DNA from: a virus
Virus record (IMG/VR): IMGVR_UViG_3300032050_000036
Span: 1-64,000 of that record
Length of the DNA stretch: 64,000 nucleotides
Direction: 5' to 3' (one strand)
Shown here: piece by piece, positions 23,219 to 60,277 of the stretch
Layout: each line of letters opens with the position of its first letter
How positions within the stretch are numbered: the stretch's first letter is position 1
Translations under genes and position numbers: made by a program
Notes under the pieces: generated by a model
What the model was told of the DNA's origin: nothing
Databases searched by the model: none
What the model saw: only the letters and a program-made list of their open reading frames with translations

Positions 23219-24437
23219 TACAGAGTCAAAATTAATCTCAGCCGTATTAAAAGATAAGCAGGCCCATGTTTTATTACAGGCCAACATAGAAAATATATTA
23301 GTTACACATGTTGATGTATGGCATTTTATTAGAAAGTATTATGAGAATAATGCCACAGTACCTCCTACCGATTTAGTAGTAGAAAAATTTAGAGATTTTG
23401 AACCAGTTGCTGGAGTTGGATCTACCAAACATCATCTTGAAGAGTTGCAGGCAGAATACCTTACAAATAGTTTAAAGGATATTATTAGATCTGCTGCTAC
23501 AGATGTTCAGGGCGGACAGGGTGTTGAAGCACTTGAAACACTTATTACAAAAACAGCAGAACTAAGAAAAAATACTGCAGCCATTCGTGATATCGATGTA
23601 ACAGATTTAGATTCTGCTGTTGCATATTTTGAAAATTTAAAAAAGCAACAAGAGGCTGGTGCTATAGGAATTAAGACAGGCCTTCCAGGATTCGATAACT
23701 ACCTACCCTCTGGAATCATGCCAGGGCAGTTAGGAGTCTTTCTTGCATATCCAGGTATAGGAAAGTCATGGTTGTCTCTCTATTTCGCTGTGCAGGCCTG
23801 GAAACAGGGTCGTAGCCCTATGATCATTAGCCTTGAAATGTCTGAGGTTGAAGTTAGAAATCGTGTGTTTGCTATCATGGGTGAAGGATTGTGGTCACAC
23901 CGCAAGTTAAGCGCTGGACAAATAGAAATGGACATGCTTAAGTCTTGGCATGCTAAGCATGTTCACGGTAAGCCAGAGTTTCATATCATTTCAAATGATA
24001 CAGGTGGAGATATTACCCCATTAGTTTTGCGTGGAAAAATTGATCAATATAAACCAGACTTTGTTATTGTTGATTATTTGCAACTCATGAGTCCAAACCA
24101 AAAGTCAGATAATGAAACTGTTCGTATGAAGAATCTTTCTCGTGAATTAAAATTAATGGCTATCTCAGAAGAGGTTCCAATTATTGCAATCTCATCTGCA
24201 ACTCCAGACGATGTTACAAAACTTGAGACCGTACCAACGCTTGGTCAAACAGCATGGTCAAGACAAATTGCCTATGATGCTGACTGGGTTTTGGCACTTG
24301 GTAGAGGTACAAATAGCGATATTATTGAGTGTGTGTTCCGTAAGAATCGTAACGGTTTTATGGGGGAATTCTTAGTACAGGCTGATTTTGACAAGGGATA
24401 TTACAGATATAAAGATTATGAAGATAAGTCAGTATAA
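23211..24437 (+). CDS. dnaB: Replicative DnaB-like helicase
   Basis: Walker A AYPGIGKS, SLEMS, VIVDYLQLM, SRELKLMA, IAYDAD, KNRNG. Confidence 0.95.
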   Translation: MNNTESKLISAVLKDKQAHVLLQANIENILVTHVDVWHFIRKYYENNATVPPTDLVVEKFRDFEPVAGVGSTKHHLEELQAEYLTNSLKDIIRSAATDVQGGQGVEALETLITKTAELRKNTAAIRDIDVTDLDSAVAYFENLKKQQEAGAIGIKTGLPGFDNYLPSGIMPGQLGVFLAYPGIGKSWLSLYFAVQAWKQGRSPMIISLEMSEVEVRNRVFAIMGEGLWSHRKLSAGQIEMDMLKSWHAKHVHGKPEFHIISNDTGGDITPLVLRGKIDQYKPDFVIVDYLQLMSPNQKSDNETVRMKNLSRELKLMAISEEVPIIAISSATPDDVTKLETVPTLGQTAWSRQIAYDADWVLALGRGTNSDIIECVFRKNRNGFMGEFLVQADFDKGYYRYKDYEDKSV

Positions 24438-24445
24438 TATGCGGT

Positions 24446-24772
24446 ATGGAGATATATCAGCACAAGCCCATCAAAAGGTTTGGTTTGGACGGGATCATCA
24501 ATGATGACTCTGCCATATACAGATTACAGCAAGAATATATCAGATTACTGGTATCAGAAATGCGAATATCTGGTTATGCTCCTAGATTTGACATTGATCC
24601 ACAATTTACACTATCATATAATGAAAACAAAAACTACTTTGAATTTAAACTAAGCGTATATGGAATATATATCGGGAGAAAGAAAGCAGAATGGATACTA
24701 GGAATAGACGGAACGAAGCCAGTGTATACACAACCAGCCAAGTTAAAAGAGTACTCTCAGGATCTGGCATAA
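24446..24772 (+). CDS. Hypothetical protein (leaderless)
   Basis: TATAAT at 24433-24438, 7 nt before the ATG. Confidence 0.65.
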   Translation: MEIYQHKPIKRFGLDGIINDDSAIYRLQQEYIRLLVSEMRISGYAPRFDIDPQFTLSYNENKNYFEFKLSVYGIYIGRKKAEWILGIDGTKPVYTQPAKLKEYSQDLA

Positions 24773-43207: not shown

Positions 43208-43658
43208 AATTAATAATTTAGACGAAAATGTTTTTATTATAAAAAATTTTTTAAGCAATGATGAGTTTGATGATGCATTGCGTGGAGATTTTAATCTTAT
43301 TAAATTAAAAATTTCAAATATATTTAATAATCAATACTCAGTCAAAGGTTCTGGAAGAATTAGAGTTCTTAGTGTTGGAGAGTTTATGGAACCACATTCA
43401 GACCAGCACAAAGATAGTTGTAAGTGTGGATATTGTTCTTTAGGGCATAATAATAAAAAAATATATGCTGCCGTTATATATTTAAATGATGACTATTCTG
43501 GAGGAGAAATATTTTATACTAATAAAAATATTAAACATAAGCCATCAGCCAATAGTTTAATTTGTCATCCAGCATCAGAAGAATATACACATGAGGTTTT
43601 GCCAGTCCTTACTGGAGAAAGAAAATCAATTTCATTCTTTTTAACTGATGGTGTATAA
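43200..43658 (+). CDS. 2OG-Fe(II) oxygenase, prolyl-4-hydroxylase-like
   Basis: PHSD...AVIYLNDDYSGGEI...HEVLPV..GER. Confidence 0.85.
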   Translation: MDKINNLDENVFIIKNFLSNDEFDDALRGDFNLIKLKISNIFNNQYSVKGSGRIRVLSVGEFMEPHSDQHKDSCKCGYCSLGHNNKKIYAAVIYLNDDYSGGEIFYTNKNIKHKPSANSLICHPASEEYTHEVLPVLTGERKSISFFLTDGV

Positions 43659-43667
43659 TAAATAAAT

Positions 43668-44333
43668 ATGACTTTTAAAATAAAAAACAATATATCTGGA
43701 TCAGAATTTTGGGTAGATTCTGAATTTTTAAATTTTCCAGAGTTAGAAGAACAATCTTTTATACCAAGTAAGTGGTCTTGTTATAATAAAATAGGAGATG
43801 ACTATGATAATAAAATTATTAAGCCTGTTAATAAATATGTACTAGAACTTTATCCAAAACCAGAAATTATACAAAAAACAAATAATAAAATAGTTTTAAG
43901 ACAAAAGACACATGCTGAGATATGGGTTGAGCCATTAAAACGTTATTCAGAAGAAACTCTTTATGCATTAGATAAATGTCATCAAAGACAGTTTTATCCA
44001 TCTAGTTTTAAAATTTTTTCAGAGGAGTGTTTTTTGGCAACGTATAGATTTTATATGCCATGGTTTCCTGACTTAAGAACAAACATATTTTTTAAAAATA
44101 TAGAAGACGAATTCTCTCCGTTTAAAGTTAAAAATGATGCAGTTGTTTTTTATCCCCCAGAAAAAAATGATAAATATGTTAACACATGCTTTATACATTT
44201 TAATATTAAAAAAAATGGACCACACATGAAAGACGATAGGTATGGTATCATAGATATAGGATCTCCAATGTATGACATGGAGTTAAAGTTGGATGAAGAC
44301 ATAATAGAAAAGATTGCTAATGAGTATGAATGA
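43668..44333 (+). CDS. Hypothetical protein (possibly DUF6065/dUTPase-like fold)
   Basis: RFYMPW...IIDIGSPMY resembles the neighbouring gene; TATAAT 8 nt upstream. Confidence 0.45.
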   Translation: MTFKIKNNISGSEFWVDSEFLNFPELEEQSFIPSKWSCYNKIGDDYDNKIIKPVNKYVLELYPKPEIIQKTNNKIVLRQKTHAEIWVEPLKRYSEETLYALDKCHQRQFYPSSFKIFSEECFLATYRFYMPWFPDLRTNIFFKNIEDEFSPFKVKNDAVVFYPPEKNDKYVNTCFIHFNIKKNGPHMKDDRYGIIDIGSPMYDMELKLDEDIIEKIANEYE

Positions 44334-56997: not shown

Positions 56998-57051
56998 ATA
57001 CCTGCCCGAAGGGGGGTATACATTGAACTCGCTTAACAAGGAGGAAACATG
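56998..57051 (+). promoter_or_regulatory. ROSE-like RNA thermometer in the hsp20 5' UTR
   Basis: 5' hairpin ATACCT(G)CCC-gaa-GGGGGGTAT; CTC(G)CTT-aac-AAGGAG sequesters the SD with a bulged G. Confidence 0.65.
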
Positions 57052-57468
57052 GTAAGTTCATTTGCATTGGATCTTTTTAAGGATCCATTTTTTATTGGTT
57101 TCAACAGAGAGTTGGACCGTTTTTCTAATATCCATCGTGAGGCAACTCGTCAATCTTATCCACCATATGATGTGGTAAAACTTGATGAGGACACTTACAA
57201 GTTATCTTTGGCCATTGCTGGTTTCAGCAAGGACGAAGTTGAGGTTTCTGTGGATAATGGAAGTTTAATTATCAAGGGTGAGAAAACCGAAGAAGAGAAC
57301 ACTAATGTTCTACATAAGGGTATCGCAACTCGCAAATTCACACGCACCTTTGCTCTTGGAGAGTATATGGAGGTTGATCGTGCTGAAATGGCAGACGGTA
57401 TTCTTAGCGTCTTTGTGGAAAGAAACATCCCCGAAGAAAAGAAACCAAAAACTATTAAAATCAAGTAA
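57049..57468 (+). CDS. hsp20: Small heat-shock protein (IbpA-like Hsp20)
   Basis: YPPYDV...LAIAGF...LHKGIATRKFTRTFAL...A.MADGILSV...PEEKKPKTI.I. Confidence 0.95.
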   Translation: MVSSFALDLFKDPFFIGFNRELDRFSNIHREATRQSYPPYDVVKLDEDTYKLSLAIAGFSKDEVEVSVDNGSLIIKGEKTEEENTNVLHKGIATRKFTRTFALGEYMEVDRAEMADGILSVFVERNIPEEKKPKTIKIK

Positions 57469-57488
57469 ATAAAAGTATTGTCATACTG

Positions 57489-57516
57489 CCACCTGAGCAT
57501 GTGGATAAAAGGCTCA
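57489..57516 (+). ncRNA. Compact H-type pseudoknot candidate downstream of hsp20
   Basis: CCAC/GTGG stem 1, TGAGC/GCTCA stem 2, A-rich loop ATAAAAG. Confidence 0.5.
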
Positions 57517-57579
57517 TTATTCATTTATAATTTGCTTTAAATTAATATACATTTTAAAAACATAAGATACTCTTATAAC

Positions 57580-58593
57580 ATGAAACTTAAAGTCTTTATT
57601 ATTTCTTTAGTGCTTTTATTAGGCACTTTTACTAATTCAGCAGCACAAGCAACAGATTTAAAAGGTGCTGGATCTACCTTCTCTGCAAACTTTATAGATA
57701 AGTGCAGAGTAATGTATGGACAACAAACAGGAAAAGTTTTAAACTATACACCAAATGGTTCTGGAGCAGGAAGAAATTTTTTTAATAATAAACTTGTAGA
57801 TTTTGCTGTATCAGATACACCATACTCAAGTCTGGATAGAAAACCTTCTGAAAACTTTGTATATGTTCCATTGGTTGCTGGTCCAGTAGCAGTTGTTTAT
57901 AATCTAAAAGACTATAGAATAACTCTCAAACTAACCAAGCAAGTAGTAGCAAAAATATTTGCTGGAGAAATTACAATGTGGAACGATCCAGAAATTCAAA
58001 AACTTAATGTTGGAAAATTACCAAAGACAAAAATAACAGTATTGTATAGAATAGATGGATCTGGCACTTCTGAAGTGTTTACATCTTACCTAAATTCAGT
58101 TGCTCCAAACATTTGGACTAAACCAGGAAACAAAACTTTCTCAACAGCATTTCCAGGTAATATAAATAATTATGTTGGAGCGTTTCAATCTGCAAGCGGA
58201 TCAACTCAGATTGCATTTTTGCAGTCTACACTTAATGGATCTATTTCATATAATGAAGTTTCTTATGCTAAAGGATTTAAGTCTGCTTCAATTGAAAATG
58301 AGGCTGGTAGATTTACTAATCCTACCCCTTCTGCAGCAGCATCATTTTTATCTAACTTTAAATTTAACCAAGATGGGTCTGCCGTATTAGATTATAAAAA
58401 TACTAATAAACTTGCATATAACATATCAACTTTTGCATATGGTGTTGCCTATACTAATAGTGGATCAAATGCTGCAACAGTTAGAGAGTTTTTGACATTT
58501 GCTATAACAAAATGTAATAAAATAGAAGGATATGCTCCAATTACTGGAAATGCCCTTAAAGTTGCAAAAGCACAAATAGCAAAGATAAAGTAG
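57580..58593 (+). CDS. pstS: Phosphate ABC transporter substrate-binding protein
   Basis: Signal peptide; GAGSTF, GSGAG, DFAVSD, R.DGSGTS, Y.ISTFAY. Confidence 0.93.
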   Translation: MKLKVFIISLVLLLGTFTNSAAQATDLKGAGSTFSANFIDKCRVMYGQQTGKVLNYTPNGSGAGRNFFNNKLVDFAVSDTPYSSLDRKPSENFVYVPLVAGPVAVVYNLKDYRITLKLTKQVVAKIFAGEITMWNDPEIQKLNVGKLPKTKITVLYRIDGSGTSEVFTSYLNSVAPNIWTKPGNKTFSTAFPGNINNYVGAFQSASGSTQIAFLQSTLNGSISYNEVSYAKGFKSASIENEAGRFTNPTPSAAASFLSNFKFNQDGSAVLDYKNTNKLAYNISTFAYGVAYTNSGSNAATVREFLTFAITKCNKIEGYAPITGNALKVAKAQIAKIK

Positions 58594-58605
58594 TATAATT
58601 GTAAT

Positions 58606-58685
58606 AGTCCTCCGTAGGACCTTGGGATGATTAGTTACCATCTTATTTAACCTGGCCATCGTGCCTGAATTTCCTGCGGGGGATT
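58606..58685 (+). ncRNA. Candidate structured small RNA (about 80 nt)
   Basis: TATAAT at 58594-58599 puts +1 at A58606; 14-bp terminal stem 58606-58619/58672-58685; internal hairpins. Confidence 0.65.
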
Positions 58686-58714
58686 TATAATTCCCCTGTA
58701 TAATAATCTTATCT

Positions 58715-58978
58715 ATGACTGACAAAGAACTTCATAGGCAAAAACAGGCTTACAAGAAAAGACTGACAGAAATAAAACAGTCTAGCGGATGTGTAGACTG
58801 CGGAGAAACAAATCCAATTGTTTTAGATTTTGATCATCTTAAAGACAAAAAATATAATGTTTCAAGAATGATTCACGATGGATTTTCCTGGAAGGCTATC
58901 AAAAAAGAAATAGATAAGTGTGAAGTTGTTTGTGCTAATTGTCACAGGATAAGAACTCACTATAGGCTTATTAATTAA
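58715..58978 (+). CDS. Small HNH endonuclease with zinc ligands
   Basis: CVDCG...LDFDH...KCEVVCANCHRIRT. Confidence 0.85.
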   Translation: MTDKELHRQKQAYKKRLTEIKQSSGCVDCGETNPIVLDFDHLKDKKYNVSRMIHDGFSWKAIKKEIDKCEVVCANCHRIRTHYRLIN

Positions 58979-58983
58979 TTATT

Positions 58984-59160
58984 TTAAGAATTTTTAATAT
59001 CTGTAATTATTGCATCTGCAAGTTCTTTACTAAAATGTACGTGCCCCGAGGCCAATTTTTCAAATGCTGGTGATAATTTTACAATAATGTTATTTTTTGT
59101 AATTTCCATTATTTGGTGTACAAGAATTTCTGCCTGTTGCTGTGATGTTAGTTCTTCCAT
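58984..59160 (-). CDS. Hypothetical protein (58 aa, leaderless, not in the ORF track)
   Basis: Minus-strand TGATATAAT (59175-59167) 6 nt before the ATG; MEELTSQQQAEILVHQIM... Confidence 0.65.
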   Translation of the reverse strand: MEELTSQQQAEILVHQIMEITKNNIIVKLSPAFEKLASGHVHFSKELADAIITDIKNS

Positions 59161-59166
59161 CTCTCA

Positions 59167-59190
59167 ATTATATCATTAATATGGTATACT
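59167..59190. promoter_or_regulatory. Back-to-back divergent extended -10 promoters
   Basis: TGATATAAT on minus (59175-59167) and TGGTATACT on plus (59182-59190), each 6-7 nt from an ATG. Confidence 0.75.
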
Positions 59191-59197
59191 ATTATCT

Positions 59198-60277
59198 ATG
59201 CCATATCGTATAGGTGCTAAGGGGTCATCGGGTTGCTCTGGATACCCTGCTGTAAAGGACACAGGAGAGGTTATGGGCTGCCATAAGACTCGTCGTGAGG
59301 CTGCAGCACAGATCTATGCTATAAACCGCTCTGAGGGCAATATAGGCAAGGCTATGGTCAAAGAGGGCGACATGGTAATGGCTCCACACGAAGAAGAAAT
59401 GTATGTTGGTCGTGTAGTTCATGTAATGACAGAGGGCATGCTTGGTATGCCAGGATCAGAATATTCTCTTGAGGCATCAGCAGAAGAGCCTGCTATTTTA
59501 ATTCAACTATTTGAAATGGAAGAAGGAGAATTAGAAGAAACAGAATATTTTGTTGGAGCAATGGCAAAAGATGTAATGGTTTTACCATCAATTGATTCAG
59601 GAGAAAGCATGGATAAAGCATATACAGGATGCGGATGTCCAATGTGTAAAGAATTAGATGTAACATGTGAGCAATGTCCACAATGCCAATCTGGAGAAAT
59701 GAAATCAGATTGTTGTGCTAATGTAGTTAAGCAAGCACCATGTTGGGATGGATATGTACAAAGGGGAATGAAGCCAGGAGAAAATGGTAAACCAGTTCCT
59801 AATTGTGTTCCAGCAGAAAAGGCTGATGATCTTTGGGAAGATTCTGATGATGTAGTGTATGAAACTGATTCAATGTCAAAAGCGGAAGGCTATTCTCCAC
59901 CAGCAGGTGCAAGAGCAGCAGCACGTAAAGCAATTAAATTTAAGGAACAAGGCAAGGCAAAAGGTGCGGGTACATCAGTAGGATGGACTCGTGCAGGACA
60001 GTTGGCAAGAGGAGAAACATTGTCTCTTAGCACTGTTAAAAGAATGTACTCTTATTTTTCTCGTCATGAGGTTGATAAAAAGGGGAAGGATTGGGCTAAT
60101 CAATCAAATCCGTCCAATGGGTACATAATGTGGTTGGCATGGGGTGGGGATGCTGGCTATTCTTGGTCACGTCGTATCGTGAATGCAGAAAAGGATAAGG
60201 CTTTATTTGCTGACACCTTTAACTCTATAGAAAAACAAAGCAAGAGAATTCGTGGTAGTGGTAATGGCTTCTGGTAA
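59198..60277 (+). CDS. Modular hypothetical protein, probably head-associated
   Basis: Short modules: MPY...GCH.T...A, SH3-like acidic block, Cys-rich block, CWDGY...VPNCVP, and a C-terminal RA.QLA.GE.LS..TVKRM.SYFSRH...WGGDAG..W domain. Confidence 0.6.
   Translation: MPYRIGAKGSSGCSGYPAVKDTGEVMGCHKTRREAAAQIYAINRSEGNIGKAMVKEGDMVMAPHEEEMYVGRVVHVMTEGMLGMPGSEYSLEASAEEPAILIQLFEMEEGELEETEYFVGAMAKDVMVLPSIDSGESMDKAYTGCGCPMCKELDVTCEQCPQCQSGEMKSDCCANVVKQAPCWDGYVQRGMKPGENGKPVPNCVPAEKADDLWEDSDDVVYETDSMSKAEGYSPPAGARAAARKAIKFKEQGKAKGAGTSVGWTRAGQLARGETLSLSTVKRMYSYFSRHEVDKKGKDWANQSNPSNGYIMWLAWGGDAGYSWSRRIVNAEKDKALFADTFNSIEKQSKRIRGSGNGFW

Follow-up and report, generated by a model that had tools for sequence, protein, structure and literature searches.

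A small structured RNA with a covarying three-way junction, encoded beside an HNH endonuclease gene in large freshwater phages

Within its tRNA gene region bacteriophage T4 encodes RNAC and RNAD ('species 1 and 2'), two small RNAs whose function is still unknown (PMC9697503; PMC2330249). Here we describe an RNA element that resembles them in several respects, located at positions 58606–58685 on the + strand of a 64,000-nucleotide stretch of viral DNA (the window), which comprises the first 64 kb of the 113,498-bp IMG/VR virus record IMGVR_UViG_3300032050_000036, a record with direct terminal repeats. Like RNAC and RNAD, it is a phage small RNA that is neither a tRNA nor an mRNA, and it belongs in or beside a tRNA cluster with a free-standing homing endonuclease gene; the adjacency to a tRNA array holds in many relatives but not in this genome, in which the cluster is 5.5 kb away and on the - strand. 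The present RNA differs from the two T4 species in being smaller (about 80–90 nt), in folding as a three-way junction, and in having no blastn similarity to any of 50,697 GenBank phage records. The T4 RNAs are cut from a longer precursor, whereas the RNA described here has its own predicted promoter at its first base.

Three other described systems invite comparison. The T4 endonuclease SegB has a conserved motif of tRNA genes as its recognition sequence, and the genes next to it are mobilized together with it (PMC2330249). The locus described here is similar in that a small endonuclease gene with its own predicted promoter occupies an intergenic position beside conserved structured-RNA genes, a position at which some relatives have the gene and others lack it, but SegB is a GIY-YIG enzyme, whereas the present protein is an 87-aa HNH protein whose recognition of the RNA gene is conjecture only. 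In the pRNA of phi29 (RF00044), as here, the 5' and 3' ends pair to close a three-way junction carrying two hairpin loops. The present RNA, however, has no Rfam match, its loops are not complementary to one another (AUUAGUUAC versus CAUCGU, UUCG or GCAA), and its phage, of about 113 kb with direct terminal repeats and with a capsid nearest to those of Streptomyces cluster phages, is unrelated to the phi29-like phages. The HEARO or omega RNA of IscB is likewise a structured RNA whose gene immediately precedes that of an HNH-domain protein, but it is about 300 nt long with a large RuvC+HNH partner, whereas here the protein is a bare 87-aa HNH, there is no Rfam match, and the pairing of RNA with protein gene is broken in several loci. 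A guide RNA of the HEARO/omega type was rejected on these grounds, the protein having the HNH domain only and RNA and HNH each being found alone.

The family may also have been encountered before without a name. A survey of IMG/VR intergenic regions (PMC10690425) lists 8,495 unnamed covarying candidates (DNAVirus_N) with a median length of 65 nt. These share their IMG/VR intergenic source with the present family, which may be among them, and the text of the survey mentions neither HNH nor Hsp20. The RNA family is presented as new to Rfam 15, with the proviso that it may be an unnamed entry in that catalogue.

The starting point was an earlier note on the window, made from its letters, which proposed a promoter-defined structured RNA at this position; on checking the sequence, all of its coordinates were borne out, including the 14-bp stem, the inner hairpins, both TATAAT boxes and the HNH open reading frame (ORF). 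The element consists of three helices, designated P1, P2 and P3, and scores 79.7 bits with a covariance model (R1) of the family. P1 is formed by AGUCCUCCGUAGGA (58606–58619) and UCCUGCGGGGGAUU (58672–58685), which in the window pair over 14 bp, three G-U pairs among them; the 3' strand is followed by an A/U-rich spacer and is the probable 3' end of the RNA. P2 (58623–58645) is a hairpin in which 58623–58629 pairs with 58639–58645 to present a 9-nt loop, AUUAGUUAC, at 58630–58638. P3 (58652–58667) is a smaller hairpin in which GGC (58654–58656) pairs with GCC (58663–58665) around the loop CAUCGU, with a possible outer pair, C58652:G58667, across a U-U mismatch. Relative to shuffled sequence, the fold has a z score of -2.25 to -2.4 on the + strand and of -0.7 to -0.8 on the - strand.

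Homologues were collected from IMG/VR phage contigs using as queries the HNH proteins of the window and of two divergent relatives, the pstS protein encoded upstream, and a DNA pattern derived from the RNA, and more than 300 loci (referred to by L numbers) were recovered. The pool of homologues contains 139 distinct sequences with 111 distinct cores. R1 was built from 54 sequences, and an alignment of 98 distinct sequences (A7) is the basis of the pairing and covariation counts; boxes flanking the RNA were counted in 179 distinct loci. Seventy-nine loci were selected by the RNA pattern alone. An IMG/VR search with an exact 15-mer of the stem gave 10 matches, all of them chance matches in unrelated GC-rich contigs. 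R1 gives one strong + strand match per locus, at 70–98 bits with two outliers at 50–54 bits, and only 15–25 bits on the opposite strand, and it finds a single copy both in the whole 113.5-kb genome and in three other records that were scanned entire. The family was seen only in phage contigs, with one copy per genome.

The two larger helices are strongly supported by the alignment. P1, which is GC-rich and 11–14 bp long across the family, is 99.8% paired in A7, with changes on both sides at 10 of the 11 modelled pairs, and P2 is 93.1% paired, with both-side changes at four of its six pairs. Among 500 column shuffles of A7 none matched the observed P1 and P2 values, and pairing was halved when the partner columns were slid. 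The earlier note had put forward conservation and covariation among related phages as the check on its proposal, and both are found for P1 and P2 in these 98 distinct homologues. One P2 pair is G-U in 83 of the 98 sequences and would be a C-A mismatch if read on the other strand, and because such G-U pairs are frequent and R1 scores the + strand far higher we take the + strand as the functional one. Conservation extends to unpaired positions: UAGUUACC of P2 is invariant across the 54-sequence alignment, the P2 loop AUUAGUUAC is nearly invariant in the family (the loop being 8–9 nt long), and about 35 bases outside P1 are conserved, mostly in the junction and in P2. The tetranucleotide TAAC is present in the window at 58648–58651, but the loop pairing of GUUA with UAAC that the earlier note thought possible is not general, as a possible partner occurs in only 50 of the 165 distinct loci in which it was counted.

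P3 required a different treatment. MAFFT with RNAalifold returned P1 only, and P2 and P3 were obtained with a hand-made structure followed by model-based realignment. The column statistics for P3 are nonetheless depressed because the model columns misalign the commonest sequence type, the one with the loop GCAA, and P3 was therefore assessed sequence by sequence. Its 3-bp core is paired in all of the tabulated variants, and the lower part of the helix takes different forms according to clade (ACC:GGU, UCC:GGA, CG:CG, CCGU:ACGG, AAUUC:GAAUU and UAUUCC:GGAAUA). The linker between P2 and P3 is A/U-rich and ranges from about 1 to 10 nt depending on the member, being nearly absent in locus L274. 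When single sequences of distant clades are folded by energy alone the same three-way junction is obtained, with z scores of -2.3 to -4.2. No ORF is conserved across the element, the in-frame reading being MISYHLI followed by a stop codon in the window and MD followed by a stop codon in the commonest type. Taken together, the covariation, the P3 variants, the energy-based folding and the lack of a conserved frame indicate that the element is a structured RNA rather than a protein-coding gene or a DNA-level repeat, and on this comparative sequence evidence it is almost certainly a real RNA.

We compared the RNA with known families. No part of the 64-kb window matches Rfam 15 at gathering score. 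At E ≤ 10 the window element gives four chance-level matches to lncRNA, miRNA and sRNA families (E ≥ 2.1; 12–17 bits, with gathering scores of 55–80), and three further diverse members give none, such that the novelty anticipated in the earlier note holds with respect to Rfam for four diverse members. ARAGORN reports no tRNA in the window and does detect the real tRNAs adjoining the RNA in relatives; its silence on the element, together with the three helices, the 11–14-bp closing stem and the 8–9-nt loop, agrees with the earlier note's failure to match it to a tRNA. A tRNA-like reading, with P2 as a mimic of the tRNA-Asn anticodon arm and P3 as the T-arm, was rejected for the same reasons and because U33 and the T-loop bases are missing. 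A hammerhead ribozyme was rejected as well, its CUGANGA and GAAA core being absent on inspection, with no Rfam match and with a P2–P3 linker of variable length. The antitoxin RNAs of type III toxin-antitoxin systems are tandem direct repeats with a unit of about 35 nt, located upstream of an endoribonuclease toxin gene; this candidate was discarded in that the stem halves occur once in the window, there is one copy per genome, and the neighbour is an HNH protein and not a ToxN-like RNase. A likeness of the window's P2 to the L11-binding region of 23S rRNA or to the sarcin-ricin loop involved one sequence type and was dropped. Beyond the IMG/VR contigs, blastn of the surrounding 6 kb against GenBank phages shows no similarity other than short stretches inside the HNH gene. 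When 185,579 species genomes were scanned with a specific pattern, four chance matches were obtained, none of them supported by the model. The Streptomyces phages TomSawyer and Comrade, which belong to one family, have no copy of the RNA, the one match, at 15 bits, being without P2.

The RNA appears to be transcribed from a promoter of its own. TATAAT at 58594–58599 (+ strand) is the -10 hexamer of a predicted promoter with a start at about A58606. A TANNNT box lies 3–12 nt (mostly 7–8 nt) ahead of the modelled P1 in 169 of the 179 distinct loci, usually as TACAAT or TATAAT and often preceded by TGn, and the maintenance of this spacing lends weight to the start at the first base of the closing stem that the earlier note had predicted. 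The (TGn)TAnAAT motif is also found ahead of many other genes in this phage. At the RNA the box does not depend on what lies upstream, as it is there next to hsp20, to pstS, to tRNA genes and to unrelated genes, and its conservation supports a dedicated promoter that would start the RNA at the base of P1. At the other end, the tail following P1 is A/U-rich (CUUUUAA, CUUAAUAUUU, AUUUAUAAUU) with no clean run of U, and some 50 nt are enclosed by the stem. The RNA probably ends immediately past P1 within the A/U-rich stretch, and termination may take place at P1.

Two further features of the promoter region were observed. In loci L035, L054 and L091 another GC-rich hairpin, GUCGGGGGAGACAGCGAC, is situated between the -10 box and the RNA, which would give these RNAs a 5' extension of about 45 nt. 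In the window the end of pstS, ...AAAGATAAAGTAG (58560–58599), leads directly into the -10 box of the RNA, and in relatives without pstS (L021, L040, L051) the end of hsp20, ...AAAATCAAGTAG, does the same. The last codons, I/K-I-K-stop, are common to these two unrelated genes; either the pstS insertion recombined inside this junction or the bases are part of the RNA promoter.

The gene downstream of the RNA is provided with similar signals. A second -10 hexamer, TATAAT at 58699–58704 (+ strand), is positioned 10 nt ahead of the ATG of the HNH gene, which has no Shine-Dalgarno sequence. TATAAT or TATACT is found 3' of the RNA in 178 of the 179 distinct loci, mostly 9–12 nt after it and regardless of which gene is next, and in most loci an ATG follows 7–10 nt past this box, again with no Shine-Dalgarno sequence. 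Because of this -10 box close to the ATG and the lack of a Shine-Dalgarno sequence, the downstream gene is probably expressed as a separate, leaderless transcript. The same layout, (TGn)TATAAT or TATACT located 7–10 nt before an ATG with no Shine-Dalgarno sequence, was noted at 58699–58717, 59175–59200, 24428–24448 and 43650–43670. Most other genes of the phage have strong AGGAGG-type ribosome-binding sites. The layout of these several genes suggests leaderless mRNAs, which would fit with an actinobacterial host.

The reading that we favour, with a probability of roughly 0.6, is that this is a stand-alone small RNA gene whose product acts in trans as a stable structured RNA. Transcription would begin from the dedicated -10 promoter, where the closing stem begins or no more than one or two nucleotides away, and the product of about 80–90 nt would fold into the three-way junction, the fold itself being backed by covariation. 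P1 would hold the 5' and 3' ends together and protect both, P2 would present the nearly invariant 9-nt loop, and P3 would form a short arm of variable length. The RNA would then act in trans; its P2 loop and the conserved bases of the junction would most likely contact a protein or a second RNA. Several considerations weigh against this interpretation. Action in trans is a default reading rather than a finding, and the promoter, both ends of the RNA and its stability are all deduced from sequence. A simple terminator scan does not list the site at the RNA 3' end, and the tract is a poor canonical terminator. Sites complementary to the P2 loop are no more frequent in the phage genome than in shuffled sequence (56 with at most one mismatch, compared with 64 ± 7). 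Lastly, the near-universal adjacency of HNH leaves room for a functional tie, although shared ancestry of close relatives could explain it.

The neighbouring HNH gene (58715–58978, + strand) encodes a free-standing endonuclease of 87 aa that matches PHROG HNH families at E = 2e-23 and the Pfam HNH family weakly. With few exceptions its start is about 25–30 nt past the RNA, also in the 79 loci chosen by RNA pattern alone. The earlier note suggested that the RNA might be a partner of the protein, and this regularity is what speaks for such a functional partner (a cofactor, guide or antitoxin), the two forming one module. The exceptions make such a partnership improbable. In L274, where the RNA scores 69 bits, the gene directly following is a homologue of the window ORF at 59198–60277, and in L330, where it scores 50 bits, a methyltransferase-like gene comes next and then a homologue of the same ORF; in both, the sole HNH-like gene is farther away and on the other strand. 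Another gene separates the RNA from HNH in loci of the L040 type. Conversely, the records of L063, L064 and L066 carry HNH with its promoter and have the RNA nowhere, and at L179:2388–2473 (in the same record as L391) hsp20 runs at its 3' end straight into the middle of the RNA, the junction being at UUAGUUACC, a deletion that removed the 5' strand of P1 and half of P2 and left the downstream promoter and HNH intact. Related HNH genes of Streptomyces phages come without the RNA, as in TomSawyer, in which the homologues are inside a tRNA gene array. The predicted promoters of RNA and HNH are moreover separate, and the protein is a bare HNH domain. Because RNA and HNH each occur without the other, and because of the position of the TomSawyer homologues, HNH is best read as a mobile cassette, and it is probably a free-standing endonuclease gene that has inserted beside a conserved RNA gene; that the RNA gene is the target of the endonuclease is conjecture. 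The caution in the earlier note that the linkage might be positional only is thus favoured. A 58-aa ORF on the - strand (58984–59160), between the HNH gene and the ORF at 59198–60277, has no family match; it is 61% identical in L024, where it occupies the same position, and it may travel with the HNH cassette.

A cis-acting role for the RNA can be envisaged in two forms. In one, the RNA is a riboswitch-like or thermosensor-like element, and expression of the downstream gene is set by which of two folds it adopts; the earlier note had raised a switch for the HNH gene and described two mutually exclusive folds. There is indeed a competing hairpin in the window, GCGGGGGA/UCCCCUGU at 58676–58699 (+ strand), which at about -15 kcal/mol is stable and overlaps the 3' strand of P1, and conserved junction bases would suit an aptamer. 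The hairpin is not conserved, however, being clade-specific: high stability (-12 to -15 kcal/mol) is confined to four closely related members, namely the window, L012, L019 and L034, the value in L015 is -8.2 kcal/mol, and the main sequence types are without the hairpin. Since the second fold is limited to this clade, since P1 is very stable, with 11–14 GC-rich base pairs that are almost always formed, and since the downstream gene has a separate promoter with a -10 box 7–10 nt from its ATG, we rule out the switch for practical purposes and leave it only a very slim chance. The gene that would be controlled also varies, being HNH, a methyltransferase-like gene, the gene for the 'MPY' protein described below, or an inserted gene of about 0.8 kb to which no identity is assigned. 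In the other form, the RNA is a cis element on the upstream transcripts, a terminator, insulator or processing site 3' of the hsp20, pstS or tRNA unit. It is always just 3' of a same-strand gene or tRNA array, the long GC-rich stem is followed by an A/U-rich tract, and the phage carries another small structured element 3' of a gene (at 57489). We nevertheless consider this unlikely, as a terminator or processing stem needs no invariant 9-nt loop, no conserved junction bases and no second conserved hairpin, a conserved -10 box precedes the stem by 3–12 nt whatever is upstream, the 'loop' enclosed would be about 50 nt, and the terminator scan omits the site.

Two further readings were considered. 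Small ribozymes are common in phage DNA, and the compact fold, in which most of the approximately 35 bases conserved outside P1 belong to the junction and P2, could be that of a catalytic RNA with a three-way junction, such as a small self-cleaving ribozyme of a new type. There is, however, no match to an Rfam ribozyme model, the hammerhead core motifs are absent on inspection, the P2–P3 linker varies from about 1 to 10 nt, and an RNA that starts at its own stem has no evident need for cleavage; a ribozyme is accordingly very improbable. The other proposal, which is tentative and on balance doubtful, is that the RNA is a phage decoy or inhibitor of a new class belonging to the tRNA accessory module. 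Held out by a rigid three-way junction, the AUUAGUUAC loop would capture an RNA-binding protein of the host, such as a defence nuclease directed at tRNA or a factor in translation or RNA processing, and HNH would spread the RNA among co-infecting phages in the way that SegB spreads the tRNA genes of T4.

Phage small RNAs of unassigned function are already known as a kind, and the present family is for now an orphan. Large surveys list thousands of orphan candidates, and the value of this one therefore resides in the quality of the evidence rather than in a new principle: few phage-encoded small RNAs are as well supported, with a precise promoter-to-stem layout, a three-way junction that covaries over more than 100 distinct sequences, and bases in the loop and junction that do not vary. 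One abundant group of large freshwater phages, which probably infect actinobacteria, commonly carries the family, and no member of this group was found among the GenBank phage records searched. The analysis yields a ready covariance model and clear boundaries, and it removes the riboswitch and HNH guide RNA readings. If the RNA binds a host factor, RNA-based takeover of the host, or counter-defence, would gain a new form, and the locus would join the T4 tRNA region as a second case in which a homing endonuclease travels together with genes for structured RNAs.

The phages that carry the RNA are a large group of freshwater phages of about 100–115 kb that are distant relatives of the Stanwilliamsviridae. 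The major capsid protein is 41–42% identical to those of the approximately 130-kb Streptomyces phages of that family, and because of this similarity the host is likely to be actinobacterial. In relatives, tRNA genes are often located just upstream of the RNA and in the same orientation; in L083, L143, L151 and L273 only about 20 nt separate the last tRNA from the RNA promoter. This genome has six tRNA genes (Thr, Glu, Asp, Asn, Arg and Met) at 64155–64978, on the - strand and 5.5 kb downstream; given the arrangement in the relatives, the region has been rearranged. Because of the tRNA adjacency in relatives, we assign the RNA to an accessory region in which genes for tRNAs and HNH proteins are found together with small ORFs.

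Within the window, the RNA is between a pstS-like gene and the HNH gene, with hsp20 farther upstream. The hsp20 gene (57049–57468, + strand; Pfam HSP20, 1.5e-20) is the usual upstream neighbour in relatives, about 0.4–0.6 kb upstream of the RNA in most of the 79 RNA-pattern loci. The pstS-like gene (57580–58593, + strand), encoding a phosphate-binding protein (Pfam PBP_like_2, 2.5e-34), is inserted between hsp20 and the RNA, as it is in a minority of relatives. Just past the hsp20 stop codon there is a pseudoknot-like element, CCAC..GAGCA..GUGG..GCUCA (57469–57540).

On the other side, the ORF at 59198–60277 (+ strand) encodes a 359-aa protein of unassigned function with the signature 'MPY...GCSGYP...GCH', and it follows the RNA where HNH is not inserted. 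It matches no Pfam family, and PHROGs and a protein atlas return only families of unknown function, the atlas placing it among viral proteins. HNH insertion aside, no other protein-coding gene accompanies the RNA as constantly, but it is on the opposite strand to the RNA in L083 and L273 and we therefore see no cis link between the two. Homologues at L274:6769–8091 and L330:1210–2595 share the N-terminal motif MPYxxGxxGSxxCSGYPxVKD...GCHxT, and longer forms of the protein have a C-terminal Tudor-like domain (Hva1_TUDOR) according to the protein atlas clusters.

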